Source of the DNA: Eubacteriales bacterium
Lineage (GTDB): Bacteria; Bacillota; Clostridia; Oscillospirales; CAG-382
Length of the DNA stretch: 64,000 nt
Direction of reading: 5' to 3'
Assembly: GCA_045631825.1 (NCBI GenBank)
Contig: JAZQVQ010000121.1
Coordinates: 1,129 to 65,128 of the forward strand
Every line of letters begins with the position of its first letter. The first letter of the stretch is position 1. Position numbers and translations under genes: made by a program. The notes under the pieces were generated by a model. It did not search any database. It had not been told where the DNA came from and saw nothing but the letters and a program-made list of their open reading frames with translations. Shown here in pieces: positions 36,067 to 60,350 of the stretch.

Positions 36067-37800
36067 TTACCTCTTAATAACGTGCTTGTTGTATCTCTTA
36101 TCACTACTATACTGTAAAAGATTTGAATTGTAAAGAACTTTTTTATCCAAATCCAAACCACTTAGGGCGACAACGCTTCTTTCGTCTTCTTCCCCACTGT
36201 AAATATAATCAAAAATCTTCCTAGAAACAAACCCATAAGCGAGTGAATGAAAAAAGTGGTCGTTCCCGTTCATCTTCCTCCACATCGGTTGGGCGTTCTC
36301 ACGAACATCATCACGATACATATCCCGTAAATGTTCTATGATTATGTTTTGATAATCACCGTAACCATAAAAATGAAGAGTGTGGTTATTGACTGTCTCT
36401 TTTATAATATCCAAAGCGTTGGTTCTGTTAACTCTATAATAAGTTGTATCCCCGACGGCATCCTTGACCGGTTCGATTTCCTTACCATATTTATATTCTA
36501 TCGGCCAAATTCTACCTTTCGACCAATCACGTATGGCATTTGACAAGGTTGTTTCGGGGTAACGGTCAATCCCTCCGGCCACAATATTATATTTCTCATC
36601 CAGAAGATATAAAGTTTCCATCAACTTATGACCGGGGACAACGCCAAAATAAACAACATCTGACTCATTCGTATTTATCGTAATGTGGCAGTACGCACCA
36701 ACGTCTATACCGATAAAGCACGCTTTACTCTTATCTATTTCCGGGGCGGTTCGATTTTCAAAAGCCTTCATAATATCATCTCGTTCCAAACGGCAGTTGC
36801 TATCTGAATACTCCATACCGAGAACGGTGTTCACCCCACGACGGAGGTTGTCCTTCTTCAAATAATCTGCCATTGTGGTAACCAAATACCGAATCGACAA
36901 CAAGTCGGATGAGAAGGGTCGTACCCAATAACCACGACTATGAAGTCTCTCCGGATAACGGGCGACCCATTCACGTTTGGCTTCGTCCCCGAGAGGGAGT
37001 CTTTTTCGGCATTTTTCACAGCAACAATATGCGTTATCTAAATCCAAAGATACGGCCATACTCAAATCGATGTCCGTCAAAAGGTTGGAAACAGATGAAG
37101 GTAAGTTCGGGATGTACACGTTTTTGAGGTCATACATCGGAATTTGCCAATGATTGCAGTGTGGGCACTGAACCCAATATTCACGTTGGTCCGACGATTC
37201 GTATTCGAGGCTTATACCGTATCCGGAAAAAGTCGGCGTACTGAAACCTTGTTTAATCTTAAAGGAGGAGTGCTGAATACGAGAATTAACCAACGCCAAG
37301 AATTCTTGGTCCGATAAGTCGTATTCGTCGTTAATAATCATATCAACCGGTGTGGATGTAGCGTCGGATTCGACGTTTGCGGACACGTAGAGGAAGGAAC
37401 CCCCAAGTTGCATAATATCATTGTTACGGATTTCGGTTGAATTTTTAACGAGAGGAAAATCTCGGTCGAATATGGGTTTGATACGAGTTTGCGAGTTTCT
37501 TTTCTTCATATTCCCATCTGGGAACGTATACAAAGCACTTGTTCCGGGGTGTTGCGCCAAGAAACCTATCGTCTTACGGATAGAAACCTCAGTCAGGCCG
37601 ACCTGTGATAGTTTCTTAACGCACATATTCGGGTGCATATCATTTATAATGTCTTTCTGGAAGCCGTGTCTTTTGTAGCCGAAAGGTTGTCCGGAAGGGA
37701 AACTCGTATTCTCTGTCACCCACTCGGACATCACAACCTGTCGCTGAGAAGTCTCAATTCTATCTATAAGATTTTTTAAATAAATATTGTCCATTTTCAA
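36067..37800 (-). CDS. terL: terminase large subunit (GpA-like)
   Basis: 577 aa and the first gene of the late operon. It has CPHCNHWQ ... CCEKCRK zinc-ribbon-like pairs as in the GpA family. The likely ATG at 37794 is preceded by AGGTG. Confidence 0.8.
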   Translation of the reverse strand: MKMDNIYLKNLIDRIETSQRQVVMSEWVTENTSFPSGQPFGYKRHGFQKDIINDMHPNMCVKKLSQVGLTEVSIRKTIGFLAQHPGTSALYTFPDGNMKKRNSQTRIKPIFDRDFPLVKNSTEIRNNDIMQLGGSFLYVSANVESDATSTPVDMIINDEYDLSDQEFLALVNSRIQHSSFKIKQGFSTPTFSGYGISLEYESSDQREYWVQCPHCNHWQIPMYDLKNVYIPNLPSSVSNLLTDIDLSMAVSLDLDNAYCCCEKCRKRLPLGDEAKREWVARYPERLHSRGYWVRPFSSDLLSIRYLVTTMADYLKKDNLRRGVNTVLGMEYSDSNCRLERDDIMKAFENRTAPEIDKSKACFIGIDVGAYCHITINTNESDVVYFGVVPGHKLMETLYLLDEKYNIVAGGIDRYPETTLSNAIRDWSKGRIWPIEYKYGKEIEPVKDAVGDTTYYRVNRTNALDIIKETVNNHTLHFYGYGDYQNIIIEHLRDMYRDDVRENAQPMWRKMNGNDHFFHSLAYGFVSRKIFDYIYSGEEDERSVVALSGLDLDKKVLYNSNLLQYSSDKRYNKHVIKR

Positions 37801-39023: not shown

Positions 39024-41474
39024 ATGATTTTCAAAGAAAATGCGCCGAGATATTGGGCGAAAGGTCTACCTGTCATACCATTGGTAGGAAAGGCACCGGT
39101 ATTGGCTGCGTGGCAGAGGTACAACGATTCGTTACCCAACGAAAAAGAGATGGAGTATATGCTCAAAAACCACGCTGATTGCAATATGGGTTTACCGTTG
39201 GGGAAGCAATCCAGATGTGTTGCGTTAGATATTGACTCGGAGATTGGGTCTGAAATAGCGTTGATTGATGAGTTGATACCGAGTTCACCTTGGATTCGTG
39301 TGGGTAAGAAGGGTAAGGTTGTAATGTTCCGTTACAACGGCGAGAAGACTTTTCGTATCAAAGATGAAAGCGGTCGGACGATTTGTGAACTTTTGTCGAG
39401 CAGAACGCAGGTGGTGTTACCGCCATCCATTCACCCCGACACGAAAGCGCCCTACGTCGCCAACGGTGATTTGGTAGATTTGGTGGATTCGTTACCGGTT
39501 TTACCGCAAAACATCGAGGACATCTTAAGAAACGCCTTTGTGGAACGGTTGGGGTTACGGTTAAATCACGTTGGTTGGACGAAGACGGTTGATTTTGTAT
39601 CTCGTGGTTCACGTGATGTGAAGATGACGAGTGTTGCCGGTCTGTATGCCAATGCGGTTTTGCGTGGTGAGATGACGTTGAAGGAAGCCATTGAGATTTT
39701 CCGTGCGTGGTGTTCTACGCAGACCGAGCAGGTTGCGGGCGACCCGATTGACGTGGAGAAGGGCGTGAGCAATCTCGTAAAATTTTTACTGCGAAACGTC
39801 ATCGGCGAGAAGAAACGTCCTTTACCGACGGGTTGGGACAACGGGCTCACAGCGGACGAGAAAAAGCAGTTAGGTGTTGTGATTGACGAGGATGCGAACG
39901 TATCGTGGGATTTCCCCAAACTGCGTGATTATTTGAAGTCAGCATTCGAGGAATCCAACGGCGATGCGGTTGAGGTTGACCGGATTATTGACTATGCGTT
40001 AGACAAGGTCGCCCGGTCGCAGAGTATGAATTCGTTAGAAGTTGACCGTGCGTTACATCACATTGCCAATTTAACGAAGGATGCGAACGTTCCGGCCCTA
40101 CGCAAGCGTATGTTGGAAATGCAACGTGACGGCATTATGGGTTCGAACCACACGGAGATTGCGAGAGCGGTTTTGAGAGATTTGAACGACATCATACCGG
40201 ATGCGGAAGAGTTCAGCACGCAGAGGGAGTTCAATTCACTGCGGTATTACAACGACGAGTTCTGGCAGTGGGCAGGTTCGCATTGGGAGATGATGAACAA
40301 GAGTGAGATTTTGCGTTTAATTTCGAGGGAGTACGGCAATTTACCTGCGGCAACCCGTGCCAACGACCACAAGGGGATTTTGACGGTTATGAAATCGCAG
40401 TTGTGTACAGATTTAGCGGAGGACAACACTGCCGGGGTTAATTACGCCAACGGTTTTGTGGATGCGTACGGTGTTCTTCACGAACATTCCAAAAAATACG
40501 GATGTACTTACACGTTGCCGTATTGTTACAGACCGGAATTGGCGAGTTTAGAGGCCGCACCCAAGTTTGCACGGTTCTTAAAATCAGTCTGGGGACAGGA
40601 CGAAGATTACGAGGAGAAGGTGCGTGCCTTACGCCAAGTTATCGGTGCGACCATTTTCGGATTAGGACCGTCCTTTGCCCGTGCGATTTTATTGTTTGGG
40701 ATTGGGCAGTCTGGTAAAACGCAACTTTTGACCATTATTTCGAAGTTGTTACCGAGCGAGGCACTCAGTTACGTTACCCCGTACGACTTCGATGACAAGT
40801 TCAAACCGGTCAAATTATCCACTTCACTTTTGAATATTTGTGGGGAATTGGACGAAAAACGGGATATTCCCTCCGCCAATTTCAAACAGGTGGTGGACGG
40901 AAGTGTTATGCAGGGCCAATACAAAGGTCGGGATGTGTTTTCATTCGTACCAAAAGCGACACATTGGTTTGCCTCGAACCATTTACCAAAATCAAAAGAC
41001 ACCACGGAAGGGTTCAATCGGCGCTGGGCTGTGTTCACTTTCAACCGGATGGTGCCAAAAGAAGAAAAAATACGTGGTATCGGGGATATTATCGTAGCCG
41101 AAGAACGGGAAGCCATTTCAGCGTGGGCCATCGGGGCTATGGGTGACTTACATCGCAAGTCTGATTACGATTTACCCAGAAGTCATTACAAAACGGTCGA
41201 GGATATGTGTTCTGAGAACGATAGTCTTTTCTTCTTCCTGACTGCCGACGAAGGTCCTCGGAAAGTGGATGCCGGTGAGGTGGAAATGGAACGCCTATAC
41301 GAGGCTTATCGTGCCTTCTGCTACTCAATCGCCGGGGCCAAACCAATCGGACTGCGTAAATTCTATACCCGTATGCGTGAAATGGGCATAATTATGGGCT
41401 TTGGGGTTAAGCAGTTGGTTGTCGAAGGCCTGAGTCTTGACCGCACGGTCGGTGTTAAACTGGGGAGGGGATGA
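39024..41474 (+). CDS. bifunctional primase-polymerase / D5(P4)-type SF3 helicase
   Basis: 816 aa. N-terminal prim-pol pattern (GLPVIPLVGKAPVLAAWQRY ... VALDIDS ... VVLPPSIHPDT). C-terminal Walker A GIGQSGKT and Walker B-like region. Confidence 0.9.
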   Translation: MIFKENAPRYWAKGLPVIPLVGKAPVLAAWQRYNDSLPNEKEMEYMLKNHADCNMGLPLGKQSRCVALDIDSEIGSEIALIDELIPSSPWIRVGKKGKVVMFRYNGEKTFRIKDESGRTICELLSSRTQVVLPPSIHPDTKAPYVANGDLVDLVDSLPVLPQNIEDILRNAFVERLGLRLNHVGWTKTVDFVSRGSRDVKMTSVAGLYANAVLRGEMTLKEAIEIFRAWCSTQTEQVAGDPIDVEKGVSNLVKFLLRNVIGEKKRPLPTGWDNGLTADEKKQLGVVIDEDANVSWDFPKLRDYLKSAFEESNGDAVEVDRIIDYALDKVARSQSMNSLEVDRALHHIANLTKDANVPALRKRMLEMQRDGIMGSNHTEIARAVLRDLNDIIPDAEEFSTQREFNSLRYYNDEFWQWAGSHWEMMNKSEILRLISREYGNLPAATRANDHKGILTVMKSQLCTDLAEDNTAGVNYANGFVDAYGVLHEHSKKYGCTYTLPYCYRPELASLEAAPKFARFLKSVWGQDEDYEEKVRALRQVIGATIFGLGPSFARAILLFGIGQSGKTQLLTIISKLLPSEALSYVTPYDFDDKFKPVKLSTSLLNICGELDEKRDIPSANFKQVVDGSVMQGQYKGRDVFSFVPKATHWFASNHLPKSKDTTEGFNRRWAVFTFNRMVPKEEKIRGIGDIIVAEEREAISAWAIGAMGDLHRKSDYDLPRSHYKTVEDMCSENDSLFFFLTADEGPRKVDAGEVEMERLYEAYRAFCYSIAGAKPIGLRKFYTRMREMGIIMGFGVKQLVVEGLSLDRTVGVKLGRG

Positions 41475-42372
41475 TGGATAAACGTGAACTGCTCAAAATG
41501 AGTTTTGAGGACAAAGTACAACGCAGTAAAGAGTTGATTTTAGAGTGGTATTTGCAATATCGGGGTAAAGTCTATGTATCGTTTTCCGGTGGGAAGGACT
41601 CAACAGTCCTTCTCCATCTGTGCCGCAGTATCAAAGGTTGCGAAAACGTGGCGGGTGTGTTCTCAGATACCGGGTTGGAATATCCGGAGATTAGGCAGTT
41701 TGTCAAGAAACAAGAAAATATCATTTGGATTAAACCAAAAATGACCTTTAAAGAGGTCATCGAGAAGTACGGCTGGCCCGTCGTGAGCAAAGAAGTCGCT
41801 CAGAAAATCTCAGAAATCCGGAATACGGGCAGTGAGAAACTTCGGAACAAACGCCTTTATGGTGATGAACGAGGGAATGGGAAGTTACCCGCCAAATGGT
41901 TGCCAATGGTGGACGCACCTTTCAAAATCACAAGTAAATGCTGTAATATTATGAAGAAAAACGTTTTTGCGAAGTTTGAGAGAGAGAGAGTGGGTTAAAA
42001 CCAATTTTGGGTGTTATGGCCACTGAAAGCAAATTACGGATGACAAAATTCCTTAAAGGGAATTGTAATGCGTTCAGTTCGGCACATCCAAAGTCTGAAC
42101 CGTTGTCTTTTTGGACAGAGGATGATATTTGGGAATATATCCGTAGATATAATGTGGAAATCTGCGAGGTTTATACCAAATGTGGGTTGAAAAGAACCGG
42201 ATGTATGTTCTGTATGTTCGGTTGTCATTTGGGTGGGGACAAAAGATTTGAGATTATGCGGAGGCAGTGGCCTAAACAATATGCCTATATTATGGATAAG
42301 TTGGGTGGGAGAGCGGTGTTCGAGGAATATATGAGAATTGCACACCTTGAAAATAAAAATAGGGTCGAATAA
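41471..42372 (+). pseudogene. PAPS-reductase-family (PP-loop ATPase) gene interrupted by a frameshift at a (GA)6 tract
   Basis: ORF 41471..41998 carries the PP-loop SFSGGKDS. ORF 42007..42372 (open from 41980) carries the C-terminal half, including a CMFCMFGC cluster. The two frames overlap only across GAGAGAGAGAGAG (41978-41990). Confidence 0.7.
41978..41990 (+). repeat. (GA)6G dinucleotide microsatellite
   Basis: Read directly from the sequence. It is located exactly at the frame switch of the split gene. Confidence 0.95.
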
Positions 42373-42403
42373 AAAATGGGATAGTTTCATCCAAAGGTTG
42401 GTT

Positions 42404-42424
42404 TTTTGTCTAAATTTTTGTCTA
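42404..42424 (+). repeat. TTTTGTCTAA doublet (copy A)
   Basis: TTTTGTCTAAATTTTTGTCTA. A near-identical doublet lies at 46751-46771, and both sit upstream of early promoters. Confidence 0.8.
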
Positions 42425-42435
42425 CCCCCTTATGA

Positions 42436-42449
42436 GAGTCGCAAGACTC
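42436..42449 (+). repeat. hairpin-B family copy (GAGTC-GCAA-GACTC)
   Basis: 5-bp stem with a GNRA loop, downstream of the PAPS-reductase gene. Confidence 0.8.
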
Positions 42450-42496
42450 CGACTTGATAAAAAATCTATTTTTTTTATTTTTTTATAAAATAATGC

Positions 42497-42525
42497 TTGA
42501 CATTAAAACGAAAGTGTGATATAAT
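42497..42525 (+). promoter_or_regulatory. consensus sigma70 promoter P1 with extended -10
   Basis: TTGACA, 17-nt spacer ending in TGA, TATAAT. An A/T-rich UP-like tract lies upstream. Confidence 0.8.
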
Positions 42526-42595
42526 GACTATATCAAGCAAGGGGATGGATTCGCTGTTCTCACTTGATAAAATAAAAATATAAGGATATAAAACA

Positions 42596-43252
42596 ATGAA
42601 AACAAAAAACACAAAAACAACAAAAAACACAAAAAACACAAAAAACACAAAAAAAGAATACACCAACAAAGCTTTAGAAAGCCAGCTAATTTTAATTAGG
42701 AAATCAATCAAAAAAGCAAGGGAAGCTTCGCAAGAATATACAGCTAATTTAATTTACGCTTTTTTACTGGATTCGCAAGAATACAAAAAAACAGAATCCC
42801 GAATCCGTTCCATTTTAGCTGATTCGTTCGGTAATGATTGGCAAGCCGTCAAAGGGTCTGAAAATAGAAAGATTCGCTATGCTAGAATCATTTTTGAATC
42901 AAGAATCGAAGCTTTGAAAAATTGCAAAAATCCAGATGAGGTTTTGCATTATCTGAAAACGAATCAAGAACAGCTGAGTCATTCAAAAGTTTTGAATATC
43001 AATACGAATCAAGCAAGCAAGCAAGCAAGCAAGAAAGCAATCAAGCAAGAAAGCAATCAAGAAAGCAATCAAGAAAGCAAGTCGAATCTTTATGGGAAGA
43101 ATCCGAATCCAGAATCCGAATCAATGGAAGTCATAGCTTTCATCAAGTCAGCTGTGAAAAATCCGAAGCTGTTAGCTTTGATGAATGAAAAGCTAGCCGA
43201 ATCAGGTATCCGAATCCAGTGCATAGCGAATCCGATTCGGAAAGTGGCATAG
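42596..43252 (+). CDS. repeat-rich basic hypothetical protein
   Basis: 218-aa ORF with its own promoter P1 and terminator. It contains KNT repeats (9-nt A-rich units), a period-4 AAGN tract (43011-43082) and a dense GAATC cluster. Confidence 0.55.
   Translation: MKTKNTKTTKNTKNTKNTKKEYTNKALESQLILIRKSIKKAREASQEYTANLIYAFLLDSQEYKKTESRIRSILADSFGNDWQAVKGSENRKIRYARIIFESRIEALKNCKNPDEVLHYLKTNQEQLSHSKVLNINTNQASKQASKKAIKQESNQESNQESKSNLYGKNPNPESESMEVIAFIKSAVKNPKLLALMNEKLAESGIRIQCIANPIRKVA
43011..43082 (+). repeat. period-4 AAGC/AAGA/AATC tract (18 units)
   Basis: AAGCAAGCAAGCAAGCAAGCAAGAAAGCAATC... read directly. It encodes QASKQASKKAIKQESNQESNQESK. Confidence 0.9.
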
Positions 43253-43254
43253 TC

Positions 43255-43304
43255 AAGAGAGAGTCGCAAGACTCTCTTTTTTCTTTTTTTTTTCTTTTTT
43301 TTTT
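43255..43304 (+). terminator. intrinsic terminator built on a hairpin-B core
   Basis: AAGAGAGAGTC-GCAA-GACTCTCTTTT stem (8-11 bp, GNRA loop), then a T-rich tract of about 27 nt. Confidence 0.85.
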
Positions 43305-43357
43305 AACTATGCGTAAGGGTTTTTGAAAAATTTGAATCGCCCGAATCGCAAAAATCG

Positions 43358-43373
43358 GAGTCGCAAGACTCCA
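43358..43373 (+). repeat. hairpin-B family copy (GGAGTC-GCAA-GACTCC)
   Basis: 6-bp stem, 24 nt upstream of the ATG at 43398. Confidence 0.85.
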
Positions 43374-43397
43374 ACAACATTTTGAAAGGAACAAACA

Positions 43398-43553
43398 ATG
43401 ATTAAAGGTGTAATCCAACAATTTTGTAAAACATTAGAACAAGCTGAATCTATCCAATCGGAACTTTACGAGAAATACGATTCTGTGCAGTTAGTATCTT
43501 TCCCAACGACACAGGAGGAAGGAATCTACATTTTTAAAGTAGAAAAAAGGTAA
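43398..43553 (+). CDS. small hypothetical protein (51 aa, below the ORF-track cutoff)
   Basis: ATG is preceded by the canonical hairpin-B, CAACAA and GAAAGGAA leader. The frame is open to TAA at 43551-43553. Confidence 0.45.
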   Translation: MIKGVIQQFCKTLEQAESIQSELYEKYDSVQLVSFPTTQEEGIYIFKVEKR

Positions 43554-43581
43554 TTTTTAGCATTTTTTCTACCTAAAACTC

Positions 43582-43610
43582 TTGACAATACAACAAAAGT
43601 ATGATATAAT
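43582..43610 (+). promoter_or_regulatory. consensus sigma70 promoter P2 with extended -10
   Basis: CTTGACAATACAACAAAAGTATGATATAAT. The upstream TTTTTTCTACCTAAAAC is shared with P4. Confidence 0.85.
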
Positions 43611-43650
43611 CATATCTGTAATCGGGACAACCCGAAACAACTCAACCAAT

Positions 43651-43666
43651 GGAGTCCCGAGACTCC
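43651..43666 (+). repeat. hairpin-B family copy (GGAGTC-CCGA-GACTCC)
   Basis: 28 nt upstream of the ATG at 43695. Confidence 0.9.
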
Positions 43667-43694
43667 AACAACCAACCTGAAAGGAACTAACGCA

Positions 43695-44003
43695 ATGAAA
43701 CACACATTATTTATCGGATTGAATGACAAGGACACGAAACAACAAGAAATTGACACTATCACAGCCTATAAAACGCTGATTCGCCTTATGACAAAGAACG
43801 GCTACACGGGTGGGACGATTTCCCAAGCCGAGGGATTTTATACTCATCAGGACGGCAGTTTTACAACCGAAAAAATGATTCGGGTGGAAATTATCGATGC
43901 CGATGCAGTCAAGACCACTAACCTCATCAACGACATCAAGGTAGCCTTGAATCAGGAATGCGTAGGCTTACAGGAAGAAGTCGTCAAAACGAGTTTTGTG
44001 TAG
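43695..44003 (+). CDS. hypothetical protein
   Basis: 102-aa ORF with a P2 / hairpin-B / GAAAGGAA leader. Confidence 0.65.
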   Translation: MKHTLFIGLNDKDTKQQEIDTITAYKTLIRLMTKNGYTGGTISQAEGFYTHQDGSFTTEKMIRVEIIDADAVKTTNLINDIKVALNQECVGLQEEVVKTSFV

Positions 44004-44040
44004 GTGGAGTTTCCCTTATATTTATCCACCTAGCACGAGC

Positions 44041-44074
44041 AGTTTGGAGTCCCGAGACTCCAAACTGTATTTTT
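44041..44074 (+). terminator. extended hairpin-B copy with T-run (terminator candidate)
   Basis: AGTTTGGAGTC-CCGA-GACTCCAAACT (11-bp stem), then GTATTTTT. Confidence 0.6.
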
Positions 44075-44102
44075 AACCACTAATACGAAAGGAAACTTTA
44101 CA

Positions 44103-44531
44103 ATGGCAACAGCTAATTTTAAACAAATGGACAAATTTGATTTGTGGGTATATGAACCAGATTTTTGTGGGGATTTACCCGAGAATCCAGAGGAATGCGA
44201 CTATGATTTCGCTTACGAGGATTTTACCACCAATTTCGACTCTTTACCAAAGCCCAACACGGACTTTTTTGACATCAGCCTGAAATCTGGGCATTATTCT
44301 GGGGTGCAGATTTATGTGGACTACAAGCCCGACTTATGCGACCCGAAGCATCTTACCAACGAGGACACACGGTATTTTTTGGATTTACCGTTATCGGTGG
44401 CGAAGCGTAGGCACGAAGCCGAAATCAAACGAATCCAAAAGTGGCTTGCCCGACTCGGCAGAATCGGGGCAGTCAAACTGATAGCAGTGGCACGATTTTC
44501 AAATGGGGAGGTATGGTATGAACGAGCCTAA
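44103..44531 (+). CDS. hypothetical protein
   Basis: 142-aa ORF with GAAAGGAAAC upstream. Confidence 0.65.
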   Translation: MATANFKQMDKFDLWVYEPDFCGDLPENPEECDYDFAYEDFTTNFDSLPKPNTDFFDISLKSGHYSGVQIYVDYKPDLCDPKHLTNEDTRYFLDLPLSVAKRRHEAEIKRIQKWLARLGRIGAVKLIAVARFSNGEVWYERA

Positions 44532-44685
44532 ACGCACGAGAACCTATCTAACGGCACACAAAGCCAACGGACGGTGGTATTTTAAAGAACACAAAACCAA
44601 AAAACCTGATTTAGAAACTTTATTAAACAATTATTTGAAAGGAACAAACTATGGCAACACCAAAAACATTAAAACGAATCGATAA
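44518..44685 (+). CDS. small basic hypothetical protein
   Basis: ATG at 44518 is preceded by GGGGAGG. It overlaps both neighbouring ORFs. Confidence 0.35.
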   Translation: MNEPKRTRTYLTAHKANGRWYFKEHKTKKPDLETLLNNYLKGTNYGNTKNIKTNR

Positions 44686-44845
44686 GGAAAAAGCCTTAAA
44701 GATTATGAACAAACATTATTTAAACGGAACAGGATATTACGAATACGGGGATTGTGGCGACTTTATCTACGAGGAACGGGGTCGTTTATATCTCATTCGG
44801 TCAACATTCGGACAAGAGTATGAAACAGGCGAGGTGGCACAATGA
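44651..44845 (+). CDS. hypothetical protein
   Basis: 64-aa ORF with GAAAGGAACAAACT upstream. Confidence 0.55.
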   Translation: MATPKTLKRIDKEKALKIMNKHYLNGTGYYEYGDCGDFIYEERGRLYLIRSTFGQEYETGEVAQ

Positions 44846-45087
44846 AGAAATACAGAGCAACGATAGAACGGAAAGTCGTCAAGACTTTACTTTTGACTTA
44901 CGAGTTCGAGTCCCGAGACTCCGTAGACCGTATCAAAGAGGAGTTGAGAAACGGTTGGGCTGACTCATACGCAACCCCGATTGACGAGGATTATTTTGAA
45001 GAGGAGTACAACGATAGGTTGTTGACGCTTGAATCTTTGGACGAGGATTCTGAACCGTTATTTGACTTTTTGAGTGATGAAAAATAA
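44842..45087 (+). CDS. acidic hypothetical protein (contains an in-frame hairpin-B copy)
   Basis: 81 aa, ATGA overlap, GAGGTGG upstream. GAGTCCCGAGACTCC at 44908-44922 reads E-S-R-D-S. Confidence 0.6.
   Translation: MKKYRATIERKVVKTLLLTYEFESRDSVDRIKEELRNGWADSYATPIDEDYFEEEYNDRLLTLESLDEDSEPLFDFLSDEK
44908..44922 (+). repeat. hairpin-B family copy inside a CDS
   Basis: GAGTC-CCGA-GACTCC, codon-aligned as ESRDS. Confidence 0.8.
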
Positions 45088-45101
45088 TGACAAAATGAAA
45101 A

Positions 45102-45131
45102 CAGTTGGGTGTTAAACCAAGCACCCAACTG
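45102..45131 (+). repeat. 10-bp perfect hairpin CAGTTGGGTG / CACCCAACTG
   Basis: Follows the stop at 45087. It shares the CCAAGCA / CCCAACTGC motif with 45196-45214 and with the P4 leader. Confidence 0.7.
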
Positions 45132-45214
45132 CCCATACCACACTACTGACGATTCGCAACCGAAAACCAAACTGCTCGTTTTTGGGTATTCAAAACCCAA
45201 GCACCCAAGCAGTT

Positions 45215-45229
45215 GGAGTCCCGAGACTC
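45215..45229 (+). repeat. hairpin-B family copy
   Basis: GGAGTC-CCGA-GACTC, 12 nt upstream of the P3 -35 hexamer. Confidence 0.85.
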
Positions 45230-45240
45230 TGAAAAACCTC

Positions 45241-45269
45241 TTGACTTTTCTACCTGAATAAGGTAGAAT
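45241..45269 (+). promoter_or_regulatory. sigma70 promoter P3 with embedded palindromic operator candidate
   Basis: TTGACT, 17-nt spacer, TAGAAT. The palindrome TCTACCT-gaata-AGGTAGA spans the spacer and the -10. Confidence 0.7.
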
Positions 45270-45362
45270 TACTATTGCGACTAGGGAGTCTAGACCCGAA
45301 AAGATAGCAACTCACTATCCTGTCGCAATATGTTTTTGAGTTGTTTTTATAGGAGTATAAAA

Positions 45363-45866
45363 ATGATAAATTGTGATTACGAATTTTCATTTATCTTTGG
45401 AAAAATAGGGACTTGCACTTACTGTGGCGAACCTGCTGATACGATTGAACATTTAATACCTTGGTCTGTGATTACGAGCAGTGATTCGAGTAGAAAGATA
45501 AAGGGTTTCTGCACTTACGCTTGCCGAGAATGTAATTGTTTCGCATCAAATCGGGTTTTTCACACTTTTGAGGAACGAGTAAAATTTGTCCACGAAAAAT
45601 TGAGAAAGAAATACAAGCGATATATGGGGGTTGTTTGGGATAGTGGTGAATTAAACCAAACCACTGGAAATTTGAAAAAATATATACGAGGTTGTAATAC
45701 TTTGAACAAGATTGCTAGGCAACGATTAGCATATCCCACCTCAAATGAATTTTGGGAAATCCTAAATTCGGCTCGTGAGGATGCCTATTTAGACCCCAGA
45801 ATCCCAAAAAATCTTTTGGAATTTCTCGTCCCAACAGATTGGACACCAAGTTGGGTTGAAAAATAA
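45363..45866 (+). CDS. HNH-like endonuclease candidate
   Basis: ATG is preceded by AGGAG. CTYCGEPADTIEHLIPWS ... CRECNCFASN resembles an HNH/zinc-ribbon core. Confidence 0.5.
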   Translation: MINCDYEFSFIFGKIGTCTYCGEPADTIEHLIPWSVITSSDSSRKIKGFCTYACRECNCFASNRVFHTFEERVKFVHEKLRKKYKRYMGVVWDSGELNQTTGNLKKYIRGCNTLNKIARQRLAYPTSNEFWEILNSAREDAYLDPRIPKNLLEFLVPTDWTPSWVEK

Positions 45867-46049
45867 AAAACAAGGAAAGGGGGTTTTTAAGCGTTTCCTA
45901 TCACGGATACCTAAAAACCCCCGTTTGCCTCTGTAAGACCCCTTTACGGCGTTTTTAGAGGCATTTTAACTCGGAAGTATATCCCCAACTTTCGAGTTTT
46001 TTAAATTTTTAACCATTTTGGGGATATTTTTAACACGAAAGGATACACA

Positions 46050-46442
46050 ATGATAAAAATCGTAGAAGAAATCGGAATTAGAGAGTTTAAACCTTGGTCG
46101 GGGGCAGTAGACCCCTTCAATGAAATTGAAGAATGTGGCAAACTGGACCAATTTGAGCAGTTGATTGAACAGTTATACCCAGAGGGAATTTCTCGCACTG
46201 GTATCAATGATTGGCTCTGGCACGAAACAGAAAGCCTCTACGAGGCTCTCGGTATGATACGCTCGGAATCTGAACTCCAAGACATCATCACCGACAATGT
46301 CATAGAACCAAACGCTGATTTAGACCAATTTCTCGACTCAGAGGATTTTAACTGCTATGAACGGGACAAAATCAGAACCAATTTTGAGGATTGGGTGGAC
46401 GATTACCAGTTTTTGCACGATTTGGGAAAATATGCCGACTAA
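46050..46442 (+). CDS. strongly acidic hypothetical protein
   Basis: 130 aa, roughly one quarter Asp/Glu by eye, with GAAAGGATAC upstream. Confidence 0.65.
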   Translation: MIKIVEEIGIREFKPWSGAVDPFNEIEECGKLDQFEQLIEQLYPEGISRTGINDWLWHETESLYEALGMIRSESELQDIITDNVIEPNADLDQFLDSEDFNCYERDKIRTNFEDWVDDYQFLHDLGKYAD

Positions 46443-46532
46443 AGTTTGGTAGTATCGGTGGAGGCAGTCGAGAGGTGGGCGTGGGCAGTTTTTGACCAAA
46501 ATTGCCCAAATTAACAAAAGTTGTAATTTTTA

Positions 46533-46724
46533 CACTTAAGAAGCAGAAGTCATTGATTTTATTGAATCTGGTATGTCACTTTACTTTTTCTAACTCGGTT
46601 TCCCTGAAAAAAAATGGGGTAAAAATATATAAAAAGGGTAAAAAATATATATATAAAAGCGAGTTGAAGAATCTTAAGTGACATATCGGATTCAATGTTT
46701 TCAATGACTTACGCTTCTTAAGTG
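46533..46724 (+). repeat. large inverted repeat (49-nt arms, 94-nt AT-rich spacer)
   Basis: Arms 46533-46581 and 46676-46724 pair at 41 Watson-Crick plus 3 G-T positions out of 49. The core contains GGGTAAAAA(A)TATATA twice. Confidence 0.85.
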
Positions 46725-46750
46725 ACATTTTGAGAACCCCAAAATGGCAT

Positions 46751-46771
46751 TTTTGTCTAATTTTTGTCTAA
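46751..46771 (+). repeat. TTTTGTCTAA doublet (copy B)
   Basis: TTTTGTCTAATTTTTGTCTAA. Compare 42404-42424. Confidence 0.8.
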
Positions 46772-46881
46772 AATTACCCATTTTTCATAAACGAAAGTAG
46801 TAAAGTCAACCAAGTGTATAAGCATACCAAAGTTTTAACATCAAAAAATCACAAAAAACTGATTTTTTCTACCTAAAACAC

Positions 46882-46910
46882 TTGACAATACTACAAAAGT
46901 ATGCTATAAT
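46882..46910 (+). promoter_or_regulatory. consensus sigma70 promoter P4 with extended -10
   Basis: CTTGACAATACTACAAAAGTATGCTATAAT. Confidence 0.85.
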
Positions 46911-46918
46911 AAAGGTAT

Positions 46919-46947
46919 CCAAGCAGGAAAAGGGACTCACTGCTTGG
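46919..46947 (+). repeat. 5'-terminal leader hairpin (hairpin C, copy 1)
   Basis: CCAAGCAG-GAAAAGGGACTCA-CTGCTTGG, starting about 8 nt after the -10 of P4. Confidence 0.75.
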
Positions 46948-46986
46948 GTATTTCAATCCAACTGCTTGGGTGGTTCGGATTACACA

Positions 46987-47034
46987 CCCCACAACCCCAC
47001 AACCCAGCAACCCCACAACCCCACAACCCCACAA
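46987..47034 (+). repeat. octamer tandem repeat (CCCCACAA) x6
   Basis: Five exact units plus one CCCAGCAA variant, in the 5' leader of the 47073 gene. The complement is TTGTGGGG x6. Confidence 0.95.
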
Positions 47035-47036
47035 CA

Positions 47037-47050
47037 GAGTCCCGAGACTC
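47037..47050 (+). repeat. hairpin-B family copy
   Basis: GAGTC-CCGA-GACTC, 22 nt upstream of the ATG at 47073. Confidence 0.85.
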
Positions 47051-47072
47051 CAACAGATGAAAGGAAAAGCAA

Positions 47073-47366
47073 ATGAAAACGGAGTATATTTCGCAAGAGA
47101 ACGCAGACAGATTGTATCGGATATTAAACCGTGCAAGTGGTTGTTATTTCAAGGTTTATGACACAGAGTCGCACGTTATTACGACGAGGTTTCCAGAGAA
47201 GTTGATTATGGCGATTGACGGAGGGGACGAGGAGATTCGGATAGAGATTTACGACCACAGCGAGCGTGTATATCGTGGGACATTGTATTTACTGCCGTAT
47301 GAGGAGGATTCGATGCCTTACGATTGGTCTGACAACGCATTTATGGACAAGTTATTAGATTTTTGA
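47073..47366 (+). CDS. hypothetical protein
   Basis: 97-aa ORF with GAAAGGAAAAGCAA upstream. Confidence 0.65.
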   Translation: MKTEYISQENADRLYRILNRASGCYFKVYDTESHVITTRFPEKLIMAIDGGDEEIRIEIYDHSERVYRGTLYLLPYEEDSMPYDWSDNAFMDKLLDF

Positions 47367-47411
47367 GGGCGTAGAAAACTATCTAAACTAAAATGATTTG
47401 TCAAGTAAAAC

Positions 47412-47435
47412 CCACCTCGCCTATCGGCTCGGTGG
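47412..47435 (+). repeat. hairpin-A family copy (CCACC stem, TATC loop)
   Basis: CCACCTCGCC-TATC-GGCTCGGTGG. Confidence 0.85.
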
Positions 47436-47448
47436 AGGAAGATGACAC

Positions 47449-47464
47449 GGAGTCCCGAGACTCC
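47449..47464 (+). repeat. hairpin-B family copy
   Basis: GGAGTC-CCGA-GACTCC, 34 nt upstream of the ATG at 47499. Confidence 0.9.
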
Positions 47465-47498
47465 ACATTACAACTAAAAATTGAGAAAGGAAAATAAA

Positions 47499-47948
47499 AT
47501 GGAAAAAACTATAACATTTAAAATTGATAAGAATCGCAAAGCAGAGATTGAGATTACCTTGGGTGATGAGGGACGGTTTTCTGTCTGTGGTAGTTTGTAT
47601 GAAAAGAATCGGTCCAAATGGGAGTGTGAGTATTGTGGACAATGTTTGGACTCGCTTTCCGAGTTGATTACTGACCCATTATTTACGCAGATTTATTTCT
47701 TATGGAAACGGTATCATTTGAATGATTTGCACGCAGGGACTCCTGTGCAGGAGTATGCGTTGGAACATTCCCCCATTGGTTCTTTGTTGGAAGCTGATTA
47801 CAAACACCGTTGTGAGTATTTAAAATCCATTGGTTTATATGAGGTCAGTGGGTATAAGTATGGACACGGTTGGTTGACTGAAACTATCGAACCACACGAT
47901 TTGGAATTGATAAAAAGCATCGCAACAGGCGAACGCAACCTCGCCTGA
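47499..47948 (+). CDS. hypothetical protein
   Basis: ATG follows GAAAGGAAAATAAA. Its TGA stop lies in the loop of the next hairpin-A copy. Confidence 0.65.
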   Translation: MEKTITFKIDKNRKAEIEITLGDEGRFSVCGSLYEKNRSKWECEYCGQCLDSLSELITDPLFTQIYFLWKRYHLNDLHAGTPVQEYALEHSPIGSLLEADYKHRCEYLKSIGLYEVSGYKYGHGWLTETIEPHDLELIKSIATGERNLA

Positions 47949-47960
47949 CGGCTCGGTTGC
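47935..47960 (+). repeat. hairpin-A family copy (GCAACC stem, TGAC loop)
   Basis: GCAACCTCGCC-TGAC-GGCTCGGTTGC. Confidence 0.85.
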
Positions 47961-47970
47961 TAAATAAAAC

Positions 47971-47986
47971 GGAGTCCCGAGACTCC
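47971..47986 (+). repeat. hairpin-B family copy
   Basis: GGAGTC-CCGA-GACTCC, 23 nt upstream of the ATG at 48010. Confidence 0.9.
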
Positions 47987-48009
47987 AACAACCAAGAAAG
48001 GAAAATAAA

Positions 48010-48357
48010 ATGATTACAGTGCAAATGGAAGAAAGTGATGTTTTGGATTTATTTATCCAGCGTATAAATTATTGGACAACAGACCCAGTCGTTGCCAATT
48101 TATATACCGATATGTATGAAAGATTGCTCGAAGATGGGTGTTTCAATCACACCCAACTGGATATACAGAGAATCGTAGATAACGATTATGTGAATAACTG
48201 CTCAATCATATATTCAGACGACCCAGATTTCGATAAATACTTTAAGATTTACGAGGAACGGGGTGCGTGCGATATATCTGACGAGGATTTATCTTATTCA
48301 TATATCGAATCGGTAGATAATGACGATGAACCAACAATGATGTTGGTGCGTAGATAA
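48010..48357 (+). CDS. acidic hypothetical protein
   Basis: 115-aa ORF with GAAAGGAAAATAAA upstream. Confidence 0.65.
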   Translation: MITVQMEESDVLDLFIQRINYWTTDPVVANLYTDMYERLLEDGCFNHTQLDIQRIVDNDYVNNCSIIYSDDPDFDKYFKIYEERGACDISDEDLSYSYIESVDNDDEPTMMLVRR

Positions 48358-48401: not shown

Positions 48402-48425
48402 CAATATAACCAAAGTATGCTATAA
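48397..48425 (+). promoter_or_regulatory. consensus sigma70 promoter P5 with extended -10
   Basis: CTTGACAATATAACCAAAGTATGCTATAAT. Confidence 0.85.
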
Positions 48426-54377: not shown

Positions 54378-54599
54378 ATGTTTAACTTTGTAAAAAACAT
54401 ATTCAAAAAGAAAAAAGCTAAAACGTTTGAGGTGGCACCCCTTGTAACGGTTGCTATGACAGACGTTGAATTTTTAAGATTGTTTCCTAACCCGTATCGG
54501 GAGGCGGTAGAATTGACGAAACGTAGAAAAGGAAACAAAACATCATTTAAAAAGGGAAATATCCCGTGGAATAAAGGAAAAAAGAAAAATGGAAAATAA
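54378..54599 (+). CDS. basic hypothetical protein
   Basis: 73-aa ORF with AAGGAG upstream. Confidence 0.5.
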   Translation: MFNFVKNIFKKKKAKTFEVAPLVTVAMTDVEFLRLFPNPYREAVELTKRRKGNKTSFKKGNIPWNKGKKKNGK

Positions 54600-54819
54600 A
54601 GAAAGATTACTCTCATTTGTGGAACGTATTGAACGTTTAGAAGAAGAGAAAAAAGAATTAACAGCAGATATTAGTGAAGTTTTGAAGGAAGCGAAAGGTG
54701 AAGGTTTTGATACGAAAGTCATCAAAGAAATTATCAAACTTCGCAGAATGCTCGCTACCGATAGAGCCGAATACGAATATCTGAGAGATGAATACAAGAA
54801 ATTATTGGGTATCGAATAA
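54589..54819 (+). CDS. GapR-like (DUF2312) DNA-binding protein
   Basis: LLSFVERIERLEEEKKELTADISEVLKEAKGEGFDTKVIKEIIKLRRM matches the DUF2312/GapR signature as I recall it. Confidence 0.7.
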   Translation: MENKERLLSFVERIERLEEEKKELTADISEVLKEAKGEGFDTKVIKEIIKLRRMLATDRAEYEYLRDEYKKLLGIE

Positions 54820-57445: not shown

Positions 57446-58207
57446 ATGTCAAAGATTATAATTTATGATTCAAACAACTGGGTTCGTATGACGGTGGAAA
57501 AAGATTTCACCGGTCTTGGGTTGCGTATGTGTTGGTCCGAGGTGATTAAAGACGACGGTAATATCCGTATTTTCGTTTTCGACGGACGTGGTTGTAATAA
57601 TTTGAGAAGAACGTTATATCCGGAGTATAAGGCTAAAAGAAAATTACCGACGGATAATTTCTTCGAGAATTTGGCGTTTTTTAAAGAGATTTTGCATTAT
57701 GCACCGAAAAACGTTGGGGTCGTAGAACGAGAAGGGTTTGAAGGTGATGATGTCATTTATACGATAGCAAAGATGATGCAACCGGCTGAGGTTACTATTA
57801 TGTCTACGGATAAAGACTTAACTGCTATACCTAACGCTGTCAATCCTTTAGTTTCGAAACTTTTATGTGAACGGAAGTACGTCCATTTATACAAAGCGTT
57901 GGTGGGTGATAATTCTGATAACATAAAGGGTGTCCACGGTTTCGGTAAAAGGAGTTGGGAAATTTTAACGACGGATGAAAAGGATTTGTTGGTTAAATTT
58001 TTCGAGAACGGTCTTTCCGAAAACGATGCTATAAATTGTTCGGTTATCAACCCGAAGGTTTGGTCATTGATTCAAAAAACAGACGACCAGACATTGAGAA
58101 CCAACTGGACGATAACCAGTTTTTTTGAGGTTCCCAACCTACAAATAGAATGGGGTGAGGATAACATTGAATTATCTGAAATGAAACTACGAGAGGTTAT
58201 GTTATGA
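57446..58207 (+). CDS. 5'-3' exonuclease / flap endonuclease (FEN, Pol I N-terminal-like)
   Basis: LYPEYKAKRK, GFEGDDVI, STDKDL, LVGDNSDNIKGVHGFGKRSW. Confidence 0.85.
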   Translation: MSKIIIYDSNNWVRMTVEKDFTGLGLRMCWSEVIKDDGNIRIFVFDGRGCNNLRRTLYPEYKAKRKLPTDNFFENLAFFKEILHYAPKNVGVVEREGFEGDDVIYTIAKMMQPAEVTIMSTDKDLTAIPNAVNPLVSKLLCERKYVHLYKALVGDNSDNIKGVHGFGKRSWEILTTDEKDLLVKFFENGLSENDAINCSVINPKVWSLIQKTDDQTLRTNWTITSFFEVPNLQIEWGEDNIELSEMKLREVML

Positions 58208-58803
58208 GTATGAAATTGAATTTAATAATGGGTGCGAGAAATGACGCAAAGAACGCACGGGATGAGAATGATTTTTACGCAACTCATCCGGATGCCGTGA
58301 AAGATTTTCTTAAAGCGTTGGAAGAATACAACGATGGGTTAACGTGTAATAAGGTTTTAGAACCTTGTGCCGGAAACGGTCACATATCGGAAGTGTTTAA
58401 AGAAAAAGGCTACGAGGTTTTATCGTGGGATTTGGTACAACGTGAATATCCGTTGGATAAGGTTGGTGATTTTTTAACATACGATGGTCCGCAGGTGGAT
58501 GCCGATGTAGTTACGAACCCGCCATTTAAACTGGCGTTGGAGTTTGTGAATAAAGCACTGGATGTTGTGACGGATGGTCGTCGTGTTTGTATGCTTATGA
58601 AGGTTCAATTCTTAGAAGGTATGAAGAGGTGGAAACGTCTTTACAGTAAGAATTGTATGAAATATGTGTATGTGAACTCTCGCCGGCAACACACTGCTAT
58701 GGGTGGGGAGTTTGATAAATTGGAATCCAAAACCCAATGTTATTGTTGGTTTGTATTTGAGAAAGGTTTTGAAGGGGAACCTATTGTAAGGTGGATAAAA
58801 TGA
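58204..58803 (+). CDS. N6-adenine DNA methyltransferase (NPPF type)
   Basis: SAM-binding LEPCAGNGH and catalytic VVTNPPF. Confidence 0.75.
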   Translation: MSMKLNLIMGARNDAKNARDENDFYATHPDAVKDFLKALEEYNDGLTCNKVLEPCAGNGHISEVFKEKGYEVLSWDLVQREYPLDKVGDFLTYDGPQVDADVVTNPPFKLALEFVNKALDVVTDGRRVCMLMKVQFLEGMKRWKRLYSKNCMKYVYVNSRRQHTAMGGEFDKLESKTQCYCWFVFEKGFEGEPIVRWIK

Positions 58804-59445: not shown

Positions 59446-59799
59446 ATGATTGTAAAAGGACCGAAAGATGTTCAAATTGGAAACCTGTATATGTATGATA
59501 GATGGCATTATGGGTGTCACAAATTAGACTGTGGGGTTTGTATTGGTGTAACTGAAAAAAGTGTGACCTTCCGAGACCCAGAACGCTCTTACCTGAGTGG
59601 ACACGAGGTTAAGTTTATATCCAACGCTTATCCCAAAACTGAATACACAATGATTGCCGATTATGACAAACGTATTTTTAACGCTTACAATAAGCGTATA
59701 GACAATCTGGGGAACGATTTGAAAAATATTTGGGAAGGGAACATTAAAAAAGAACGGAAACGTAAGAAGAAAGGCTTTTGGAAAAGGTGGTTTAAATGA
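59446..59799 (+). CDS. hypothetical protein with basic C-terminus
   Basis: ATG at 59446 has GAGGTG upstream. Confidence 0.55.
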   Translation: MIVKGPKDVQIGNLYMYDRWHYGCHKLDCGVCIGVTEKSVTFRDPERSYLSGHEVKFISNAYPKTEYTMIADYDKRIFNAYNKRIDNLGNDLKNIWEGNIKKERKRKKKGFWKRWFK

Positions 59800-60350
59800 A
59801 AAAATACAACATTATCTATGCAGACCCACCGTGGGCGTATTTGTGGGGTAAAGGTAAGGATGGTGGACACTTTGCACCTGAAAAACACTATCAGACGATG
59901 GAGGTTGATGAAATATGCAAACTCAACGTGAAAAAGATTGCCGATAAAAATTGTGCGTTATTGATGTGGGCTACTATGCCGACATTACCGGATGCGATTC
60001 GTGTTATAAAAGAATGGGGATTTCGCTATAAAACGTGTGCCTTCACTTGGGTAAAGACACGGAAGGACGGACAACCACTTGCCGGTATGGGTAGTTACAC
60101 GAAATCCAACGCTGAGTTATGTTTGTTGGCTATGCGTGGACATATTAAAAGTGTGGATAAAACGGTGCCACAAATTGTTATGCAACAACGTATGGGGCAT
60201 TCGGTAAAACCACCGCAGGTGCGTGATAAAATTGTACAATTATTCGGGGACATTCCTCGTGTAGAGTTATTTGCCAGACAAACTGCCGAAGGTTGGGATT
60301 GTTTGGGTAATGAAATAGATGGTCAAGATATAAGGGAGATTTTAAAATGA
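59796..60350 (+). CDS. MT-A70-family N6-adenine DNA methyltransferase
   Basis: IIYADPPWAY catalytic motif in a 184-aa protein. Confidence 0.85.
   Translation: MKKYNIIYADPPWAYLWGKGKDGGHFAPEKHYQTMEVDEICKLNVKKIADKNCALLMWATMPTLPDAIRVIKEWGFRYKTCAFTWVKTRKDGQPLAGMGSYTKSNAELCLLAMRGHIKSVDKTVPQIVMQQRMGHSVKPPQVRDKIVQLFGDIPRVELFARQTAEGWDCLGNEIDGQDIREILK

Follow-up and report, generated by a model that had tools for sequence, protein, structure and literature searches.

In the Escherichia coli origin oriC, a cluster of GATC sites that is subject to sequestration by SeqA lies alongside an A+T-rich unwinding region, and GATC clusters are also known from the origin oriR and the packaging site pac of phage P1. 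The latter comprises 162 bp with seven Dam sites inside the terminase gene pacA; its cleavage requires methylation, and packaging follows the headful mode. The palindrome GANTC is methylated by CcrM in nearly all Alphaproteobacteria, and repABC loci have an excess of it, including the origins inside repC, where hemimethylation has been proposed to prevent re-initiation (PMC11514494). Some phages encode small methyltransferases with an NPPY/F/W motif that mimic CcrM, one of which, phiLM21 p027, was found to be GANTC-specific in a HinfI-protection assay, and the genes of GANTC-specific phage methyltransferases adjoin replication modules, which led the authors to infer that these enzymes take part in phage replication (PMC5537653). 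Epigenetically controlled DNA elements have few reliable sequence signatures, and clusters of methyltransferase sites are one of them, as exemplified by oriC, P1 pac and repC. The 64-kb stretch of DNA analysed here (the window; contig JAZQVQ010000121.1) belongs to a siphovirus, and at the beginning of its early region an array of about 30 GANTC sites extends over some 1.1 kb (42434-43526), centred on the first early gene, the 218-codon open reading frame (ORF) ORF218 (42596..43252, plus strand), which carries the core of the array. This array is very probably a feature that has been selected at the DNA level, and our best, still tentative, guess is that it serves as a methylation-sensitive replication origin or initiation-control region.

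The window contains 271 GANTC sites, which corresponds to an average of about 3.2 per 757 bp, but 32 of them lie within 42436-43526 and 29 within the 757 bp from 42770 to 43526, with 19 of these 29 being GAATC. The counts of 32 and 29 had been given in the original prediction, which a model had made from the letters of the sequence alone, and they were reproduced, as were the single GANTC in the control stretch 5001-5600 (at 5130) and the two copies of ATCCGAATCCAG at 43101 and 43208. The local excess of about tenfold that had been claimed is likewise real. Outside the cluster, the richest 757-bp window has 11 sites; when the 271 sites were placed uniformly in 2000 trials, the mean maximum per 757-bp window was 9.7 and 15 was never exceeded; and dinucleotide-preserving shuffles of 42770-43526 gave 4.9 +/- 2.1 sites with a maximum of 13. 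In terms of density, 42400-43560 has 27.6 GANTC per kb, whereas the late and middle regions have 2.2-3.6. The core from 42750 to 43500 accounts for 28 sites and is followed by a shoulder, which has 12-20 per kb and reaches to about 45250, and the whole early region (43561-52000) has 8.1 per kb, or 5.7 per kb if hairpins are left out. Outside the cluster the motif is not avoided, as its frequency is close to the compositional expectation (observed/expected ratio, O/E, about 1). Three GAGTC-N4-GACTC hairpins (42436, 43261 and 43358) contribute six of the 32 sites, and six sites are found in the noncoding stretch 43253-43397.

Within ORF218, the array consists of 20 sites between 42770 and 43238 (15 GAATC, 4 GATTC and 1 GAGTC), 13 of which have the context CGAATC/GATTCG. 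The sites are spread over all three codon phases (7/4/9 for phases 1/2/3), and the earlier statement that amino-acid repeats do not suffice to explain them is borne out by synonymous-codon shuffling, a null model that keeps the protein and its own codon usage. Under this null, 10.8-11.0 sites are expected in the 218-residue ORF, as compared to the 20 observed (z = 4.5, P < 0.0005). The protein alone thus leads to an expectation of 16.7 sites per kb, the observed density is 30.4 per kb, and the mean expectation for the other ORFs is 3.8 per kb. That the null is well calibrated is evident from 61 other ORFs of the window, which together have 173 GANTC versus 160 expected.

The excess is a property of the whole family and not of a single sequence. 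Eleven homologues with amino-acid identities of 28-92% have 12-22 GANTC each, when 4-12 would be expected from synonymous permutation. The excess is significant in each of 8 close homologues (P <= 0.0025) and in 4 loci that encode three distinct distant homologues (P < 0.001; L015/L016, L017 and L018, with two loci sharing one protein). These distant homologues, at 28-47% identity, have kept 16-20 sites, but the dominant variant is now GACTC and the CG flank is gone. Synonymous divergence among the homologues is saturated (synonymous substitutions per site, dS, 1.2-2.5; ratio of nonsynonymous to synonymous rates, dN/dS, 0.10-0.36), and the density of GANTC nonetheless persists. In the unalignable linker region, the positions of the sites differ between homologues, indicating site turnover, and upstream of the homologue in L015 there are six GANTC within 50 bp, arranged as CGAATCGGATTCG palindromes. 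In an unbiased k-mer scan under the synonymous null, CGAATC and GAATC rank top, and all four central bases are enriched (GAATC 2.2x, GATTC 1.9x, GACTC 2.8x and GAGTC 1.6x) in both orientations, in agreement with the earlier proposal that the CcrM/HinfI site GANTC is the relevant motif; variants that are one letter off, namely GAATT, AAATC and TAATC, are depleted. As the central base drifts and individual sites turn over, the conserved unit is the double-stranded palindrome GANTC with any central base. Individual synonymous positions inside the sites showed no significant extra conservation (P = 0.2, n = 8 columns), which is consistent with site turnover under selection on density. We conclude that selection on GANTC density partly shapes the amino-acid sequence of ORF218 as well as its codon choice.

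Three other interpretations of the motif were considered and rejected. CGAATC as the true motif, either as a HinfIII-type CGAAT site or as an asymmetric Chi-like site, does not agree with the distant homologues, which lose the CG flank, switch the central base and retain GANTC. A Chi-like, orientation-dependent attenuation of nucleases is at odds with the enrichment of both orientations and of all central bases and with the lineage-dependence of the dominant variant. An RNA-level explanation is contradicted by the equal enrichment of reverse-complement variants; moreover, Rfam gave no match, and the upstream noncoding block showed no covariation.

ORF218 is a real protein-coding gene, as judged from its 16 metagenomic homologues, the above-mentioned dN/dS values and a confident model of a helical domain. 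In the AlphaFold2 model, this domain (residues 25-130) has a predicted local distance difference test (pLDDT) score above 90, and the Lys-rich N-terminus and a linker are both disordered. The N-terminus is encoded by a 9-bp A-tract repeat, ACAAAAAAC (42602..42654, plus strand, 5.9 copies, resulting in KNT repeats), which had been noticed before. A period-4 AAGN tract had been described as well; it is real and corresponds to the tandem tract CAAGAAAGCAAG (43010..43081, plus strand, 6 copies), which is made up of AAGC and AAGA units with a period of 8 or 12 and encodes the disordered linker. The length of this tract varies among orthologues, in frame every time. In the homologues (P0026-P0032), the N-terminus retains MTKNTKNTK and the C-terminus KK[VAS]A down to 28% identity, and these shared termini may serve as a signal for recognition or degradation; the positional analogue of ORF218 in phage EAb13 likewise has KKVA at its end. 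ORF218 evolves much faster than the neighbouring primase (32% versus 70% identity).

How does this locus compare with the described systems? A tenfold excess of a methyltransferase palindrome is best known from epigenetically controlled cis elements (oriC, P1 oriR, pac and repABC), and it is for this reason that we favour a control element. The array is kin to the known methylation-site clusters that mark such elements, and its size, its overlap with a coding sequence and the presence of the CcrM motif in a lytic phage are unusual; no earlier report of a phage array of this kind was found in the literature. Among the closest systems is repABC, as repC shares the same motif, the same host enzyme CcrM and an excess of motifs inside the coding sequence (PMC11514494). 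The differences are that the repC origins have about three motifs whereas ORF218 has 20 and the locus about 30, that RepC is a known initiator binding its own gene and ORF218 has no similarity to initiators, and that repABC is a plasmid replicon whereas we deal here with a lytic phage that has a P4-type primase-helicase. With oriC, the array has in common a roughly tenfold excess of a palindrome with four specified bases, a density of about 37-45 per kb and the position beside an A+T-rich region, but motif and enzyme are different, the array is three times longer, it overlaps a gene, and it lacks a DnaA-box cluster as well as helical phasing. To our knowledge, there is no SeqA-like reader of GANTC. 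P1 pac and the array are both site clusters in a phage gene near a genome-processing site, in phages with a methyltransferase of (possibly) matching specificity, but the array is about 1 kb long and lies in a gene that does not encode a terminase, and the relatives of this phage package genomes with direct terminal repeats. Finally, as in case of lambda ori inside gene O, there are cis repeats in an early gene, in part where a linker between domains is encoded, and they are reached by transcription; lambda iterons, however, are 19-bp binding sites for O, whereas here the repeated unit is a palindrome of 5 bp whose central base is free, and ORF218 is unrelated to O.

If the array acts in replication, the 1.1-kb stretch would be a cis-acting element that is read by its state of N6-adenine methylation, which can be full, hemi or none. 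The dependence on the methylation state is suggested by GANTC being the target of CcrM and of CcrM-mimicking phage enzymes, one of which is probably encoded by this phage. The parts of the origin would be an iteron-like block, a tract with 90% A+T, a strong promoter that transcribes into the array, and the array itself, all beside the gene of the P4-type primase-helicase. The first passage of a replication fork would leave the array hemimethylated, and replicated and unreplicated templates could thereby be told apart, in the way that GATC clusters allow at oriC and that has been proposed for GANTC at the origins inside repC. The context is indeed origin-like, with A+T-rich elements at 42460-42499 and 42580-42659 (90% and 80% A+T, respectively) and an inward-reading promoter at 42497-42525. 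This sigma-70 promoter (plus strand, TTGACA-17-TATAAT with a TG extension) has all 12 of 12 consensus positions and is conserved in the orthologues. Upstream of it, there is first a conserved noncoding block (42340..42432) with direct repeats of TTTTTGTCNA at 42402 and 42414, ending in GTCTACCCCC at 42420, followed by a GAGTC-GCAA-GACTC palindrome or hairpin (42434..42451, plus strand, two GANTC), whose stem is invariant and whose loop is variable in the orthologues, and by an A/T-rich tract with an A-run and a T-run (42455..42496). The block of about 95 nucleotides is near-invariant across all orthologous loci including the distant L015, irrespective of whether the PAPS-reductase-like gene that precedes it here (see below) is present; in this block and its counterparts (L003 9740-9850 and L015 5285-5400) there are 2-4 copies of TTTTTGTCNA at a spacing of about 12 bp and the C-rich end GTCYACCCCCTT. 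The search for RNA covariation mentioned above concerned this block (42340-42432). The P4-type primase-helicase (Prim-Pol, D5_N and DUF5906 by Pfam matches) is encoded at 39024..41474 on the plus strand, and in L003, L007 and L015 the primase gene is followed, after about 400-530 bp, directly by the ORF218 homologue.

A methylation of the array is plausible in view of the predicted host and of a candidate methylase. The host, which we expect to be a low-GC bacterium of gut or rumen, is probably an alphaproteobacterium, as is suggested by a GapR-like DNA-binding protein (54589..54819, plus strand; Pfam PF10073, E 3e-25), whose homologues in phages were in 28 of 28 records from Alphaproteobacteria-infecting or uncultured phages. 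The candidate GANTC methylase is a small N6-adenine methyltransferase with an NPPF motif (58204..58803, plus strand, 199 residues), a full-length homologue of phiLM21 p027 (29% identity, E 2e-21), and a second predicted methyltransferase, of the MT-A70 family with a DPPW motif (59796..60350, plus strand; Pfam PF05063, E 4e-27), has matches to MT-A70/METTL3 sequences in the PDB. Two N6-adenine methyltransferase candidates and a GapR-like protein had been noted before, and it can now be added that one of the two enzymes is homologous to a GANTC-specific phage enzyme. Like phiLM21 p027 and the enzymes of Paracoccus prophages, the NPPF enzyme is small and encoded in the part of the genome for replication and DNA metabolism. 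In contrast to the phage described here, the examined genomes or genome stretches of phages with CcrM-mimicking enzymes avoid GANTC and have no array. Cultured phages of high-GC Alphaproteobacteria strongly under-represent GANTC, which is the opposite of what is found in this phage: Caulobacter phage Seuss (L002) has 5 sites in 10.8 kb, Mesorhizobium phage P1 has 44 versus 137 expected, and an 18-kb stretch of phiLM21 has 20 versus 63 expected (L019, L020). Should the sites turn out to be methylated, we would have a clear example of how a lytic phage ties a step of its cycle to a CcrM-type GANTC system, and this would give a function to the puzzling CcrM-mimicking methyltransferases that are common in phages of Alphaproteobacteria. 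In any case, the cluster is unusually large, has shaped the codons and amino acids of a gene, and has been maintained across a clade of uncultured phages.

A number of observations weigh against a replication origin. Between 42300 and 45300, there is neither a CtrA motif (TTAA-N7-TTAA) nor a cluster of DnaA boxes; a single near-consensus DnaA box with one mismatch, TTATCCACC, lies at 44022, and a second one just upstream of this region at 42291. A helical phasing of 10-11 bp was looked for in the spacing of the GANTC sites of the array, and none was found. GC skew tracks only gene orientation and transcription and is uninformative with respect to an origin. ORF218 had no family, fold or initiator match (lambda O, RepC or other) in Pfam, PHROGs, NCBIfam, PDB and BFVD, and the fold searches in PDB and BFVD with the model of the helical domain gave at most non-significant, coiled-coil-like matches. 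The comparison with iteron-like repeats in lambda gene O, which was part of the original prediction, is not supported with respect to iterons, as the 5-bp palindrome is not a classical iteron and the only iteron-like repeats, those of TTTTTGTCNA, are upstream of the gene; the repeats within ORF218 are limited to the 5-bp palindrome, the 9-bp A-tract and the 12-bp coding tandem, with no iterons of initiator-binding length (>= 8-19 bp). With about 30 sites over 1.1 kb, the array is moreover 3-10 times larger than known methylation-controlled origins, which have 3-11 sites. The shoulder of GANTC sites and 13 GANTC hairpins span the whole early region, and this region-wide pattern fits a role in transcription or DNA entry equally well. 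Phages Seuss, JWF, Lumi and EAb13 have the same gene order and no GANTC cluster, and Seuss avoids GANTC; the absence in these distant relatives implies that the array is specific for its clade and not intrinsic to this type of replication module. Lastly, the NPPF family is also found in phages of Listeria, Staphylococcus, E. coli and Vibrio, and in so broad a family specificity is not transferable at 29% identity. What stands of the predicted origin or methylation-sensitive control region is the excess of GANTC, which is real and selected; similarity to an initiator and DnaA or CtrA boxes are missing.

What alternatives exist for a role in replication? The array might serve an epigenetic control of early transcription or the titration of host factors. 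In such a scenario, array and hairpins would be read by GcrA together with RNA polymerase and sigma70, by MucR-type silencers or by CcrM; either the methylated parental genomes would express the early genes and the unmethylated progeny would shut them off, or CcrM and GcrA would be soaked up and the host cell cycle derailed. We regard this as possible, but on balance unlikely. It would account for the region-wide distribution, i.e. the 8.1 GANTC per kb of the early region (43561-52000) versus the 2.2-3.6 elsewhere, and for the 13 GGAGTC-N4-GACTCC hairpins in early 5' untranslated regions, with the invariant stem and variable loop of the copy ahead of ORF218, and the array indeed lies in the first transcription unit past the predicted genome end. 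Moreover, the leader of ORF218 contains a GATTC (42548..42552) within GGATTCGCC that is kept in 7 of 8 orthologues. With a position of about +18 relative to the predicted start of transcription, this conserved GGATTCG is where GcrA boxes occur, namely between +5 and +30 (PMC9976885). Known GcrA targets, however, have one or two boxes near the start and not 20 in a gene body (PMC9976885), and the 20 in-gene sites are at about +240 to +700, with GGATTCG as the only site within -30 to +30. The GcrA-preferred YGAKTCG is not enriched (6/20 in the array versus 57/217 in the rest of the genome), GAKTCG falls to 25-35% in the distant homologues, and among about 80 ORFs scanned there is no GcrA-like gene.

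The position of the array at the boundary of a terminal repeat, which had not been part of the original prediction, opens further readings that relate to packaging and DNA entry. In EAb13 and Seuss, the annotated long direct terminal repeat follows the primase gene at a distance of 360-630 bp, and the positional analogue of ORF218 is the first ORF of appreciable size within this repeat. The start of these repeats (GTCGCACCCCACC in EAb13 and TCGACCCCAACG in Seuss) resembles the GTCTACCCCC with which the conserved block ends at 42420, and together with the positional analogy this suggests that 42420 is probably the left end of the genome, i.e. the start of a direct terminal repeat, with the array just inside. 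The array could then be part of the region that terminase recognizes or processes, and cleavage or repeat duplication would be gated by methylation as at P1 pac, which is a precedent with its seven Dam sites inside pacA and a phage-encoded Dam. The resemblance at 42420 has a chance probability of roughly 1-2% in this intergenic region, estimated post hoc; the first GANTC hairpin is 16 bp inside the predicted end; L015 has six GANTC 30-80 bp inside; and the relatives have repeat arrays of their own by the boundary. Nevertheless, a distance of 350 bp separates the main array from the predicted end, with a length of about 750 bp the array is large as terminase sites go, and ORF218 has no similarity to terminases, the large terminase being encoded at 36067-37800 on the other strand. 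The relatives with real terminal repeats have no GANTC array, and contig ends, which were inspected as evidence for genome termini, give no consistent boundary; the end at 42420 is predicted from the similarity to EAb13 and Seuss. A packaging element appears quite improbable to us.

CcrM sites that are densely packed on the DNA entering the cell first could also be an epigenetic device of the phage, for which no counterpart has been described and which would work as a clock that distinguishes methylated parental from unmethylated progeny DNA or as a sponge for the host's cell-cycle methyltransferase CcrM or for its reader of N6-methyladenine. The phage would in this way sense or hijack the alphaproteobacterial cell cycle by means of DNA sequence alone, and a need of the DNA would shape the overlapping, fast-evolving protein. 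Such a device is a doubtful possibility.

Still less likely is an anti-defence function, be it as bait or as an island of tolerated sites. Cuts in a redundant terminal repeat would be non-lethal, and palindromes could thus be tolerated there or, on the DNA that enters first, even be used as a sink that is sacrificed or promotes recombination. The palindrome AGCT, which is avoided genome-wide and yet has 12 of its 46 occurrences in ORF218, fits this idea, as do the purge of many other palindromes from the genome (GATC 0, CATG 0, CGCG 2), the fast evolution of ORF218 (32% identity versus 70% of the primase) and the weak similarity of the third downstream gene to S-adenosylmethionine lyase, an anti-restriction function in phage T3. 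However, tolerance alone predicts the number of sites that is expected from shuffling and not the double of it, and the O/E of about 1 for GANTC elsewhere means that there is no sign of a GANTC restriction pressure. GATC, CATG and GTAC are still absent inside ORF218, the excess of AGCT is not conserved in distant homologues, and we know of no phage with such a bait.

That the array has no function at the DNA level and is a by-product of Glu/Asp-Ser, Arg-Ile and Asn-Pro dipeptides and of slippage-born tandem repeats in a low-complexity protein is extremely unlikely and largely refuted by the shuffle tests, for even though the protein alone predicts more than the usual number of sites (16.7 versus a mean of 3.8 per kb), some sites are in tandem units (GAATCC x3.8 at 43099-43122; 15-bp repeats in L011) and synonymous positions within sites are not conserved significantly above background, the counts are about double the synonymous expectation at every locus tested while the 61 control ORFs fit, 11 of the 20 sites are in the non-repetitive structured domain, the noncoding flanks are enriched and one-off variants depleted, and the density has outlived saturated synonymous divergence.

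The phage itself is a siphovirus of the JWF/Seuss/Lumi/EAb13 type, as its primase-helicase is 31-45% identical to those of these phages and its head genes are similar. The assembly is circularly permuted, and one source sample was a cattle metagenome; tRNA genes, which were sought as a clue to the host, are absent. Late genes occupy 7001-37800 on the minus strand, including the large terminase gene (36067-37800), which is thus oriented opposite to ORF218. From 37923 onwards, the plus strand encodes a helix-turn-helix protein, the primase-helicase, a frameshifted gene that resembles 3'-phosphoadenosine-5'-phosphosulfate (PAPS) reductase, ORF218 and many small early genes. Those downstream of ORF218 have consensus sigma-70 promoters and leader hairpins. 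A terminator follows ORF218 directly (43255..43304, plus strand), in which a GAGTC-GCAA-GACTC hairpin with two GANTC precedes a T-run, and ahead of the next gene there is GAATCGCCCGAATCGC followed by a GGAGTC-GCAA-GACTCC leader hairpin (43334..43375, plus strand, four GANTC). The next ORF, with 51 codons (43398..43553, plus strand), has three further GANTC at the edge of the dense zone. With regard to relatives, neither a megablast of the locus against cultured phages nor a tblastn search with ORF218 gave a match, no relatives of ORF218 or of the primase were found in IMG/VR, in JGI metagenome contigs or in GTDB genomes, and BLASTP and profile-profile comparisons of ORF218 with the positional analogues in Seuss, JWF, Lumi and EAb13 indicated no homology.

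The PAPS-reductase-like gene (DndC/CysH-type) is present in two frames (41471-41998 and 42007-42372), which are split at a (GA)n run at about 41977-41990. Its homologue in L008 is a single ORF of 298 codons, and the gene is not present in L003, L007 and L015. Possible reasons for the split are a frameshift at a slippage-prone site, decay into a pseudogene and an error of sequencing.

Near the first ORF of the terminal repeat, the relatives have their own repeat families: Seuss (L002 8845-8968) has five copies of GACCCGCGAGCGG, Lumi (L014 9002-9022 and 9855-9901) has GTTACTAGTCTAGTAAC palindromes, and EAb13 (L001 9075-9508 and 10153-10375) has GGCCGTGGC motifs. In the early region of the window, the 13 copies of GGAGTC-N4-GACTCC (42436, 43261, 43358, 43652, 44047, 44908, 45216, 47037, 47450, 47972, 48501, 49109 and 51718) are mostly located 20-35 nucleotides 5' of early start codons and are followed by AACAAC...GAAAGGAA. 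As the copy ahead of ORF218 keeps its stem while the loop varies among orthologues, this element seems to act through its sequence, as an operator or processing site, and not just as any RNA stem. An imperfect palindrome, (A)CCACCTCGCC-TATC/TGAC-GGCTCGGTGG, adjoins GANTC hairpins at about 47420, 47945, 48475, 48525 and 49080, and a tandem (CCCCACAA)n-like tract lies at about 46990-47036, directly 5' of a leader hairpin.

Uptake sequences of Haemophilus and Neisseria are absent from the window. Several palindromes are purged from it as a whole, namely GATC (0, about 212 expected), CATG (0, about 150 expected), CGCG (2, about 96 expected), CAATTG (0), GATATC (0) and ATTAAT (1), and CCNGG and CTNAG are reduced to O/E values of 0.25 and 0.30. 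The distant relative L015 is without the purge of GATC and CATG. AGCT occurs 46 times in the window versus 129 expected; the 12 copies in ORF218 lie within 42670-43191, and not in the distant homologues but in 6 of 8 close ones the number of AGCT in ORF218 is 2.2x the expectation from synonymous shuffling. The above-mentioned S-adenosylmethionine lyase similarity concerns an early protein of 102 residues (43695-44003) and is below the threshold (PF23780, E 5.5e-4). If it is true, the product of this gene, two genes away from the array, would be an early anti-restriction function that acts by depletion of S-adenosylmethionine.

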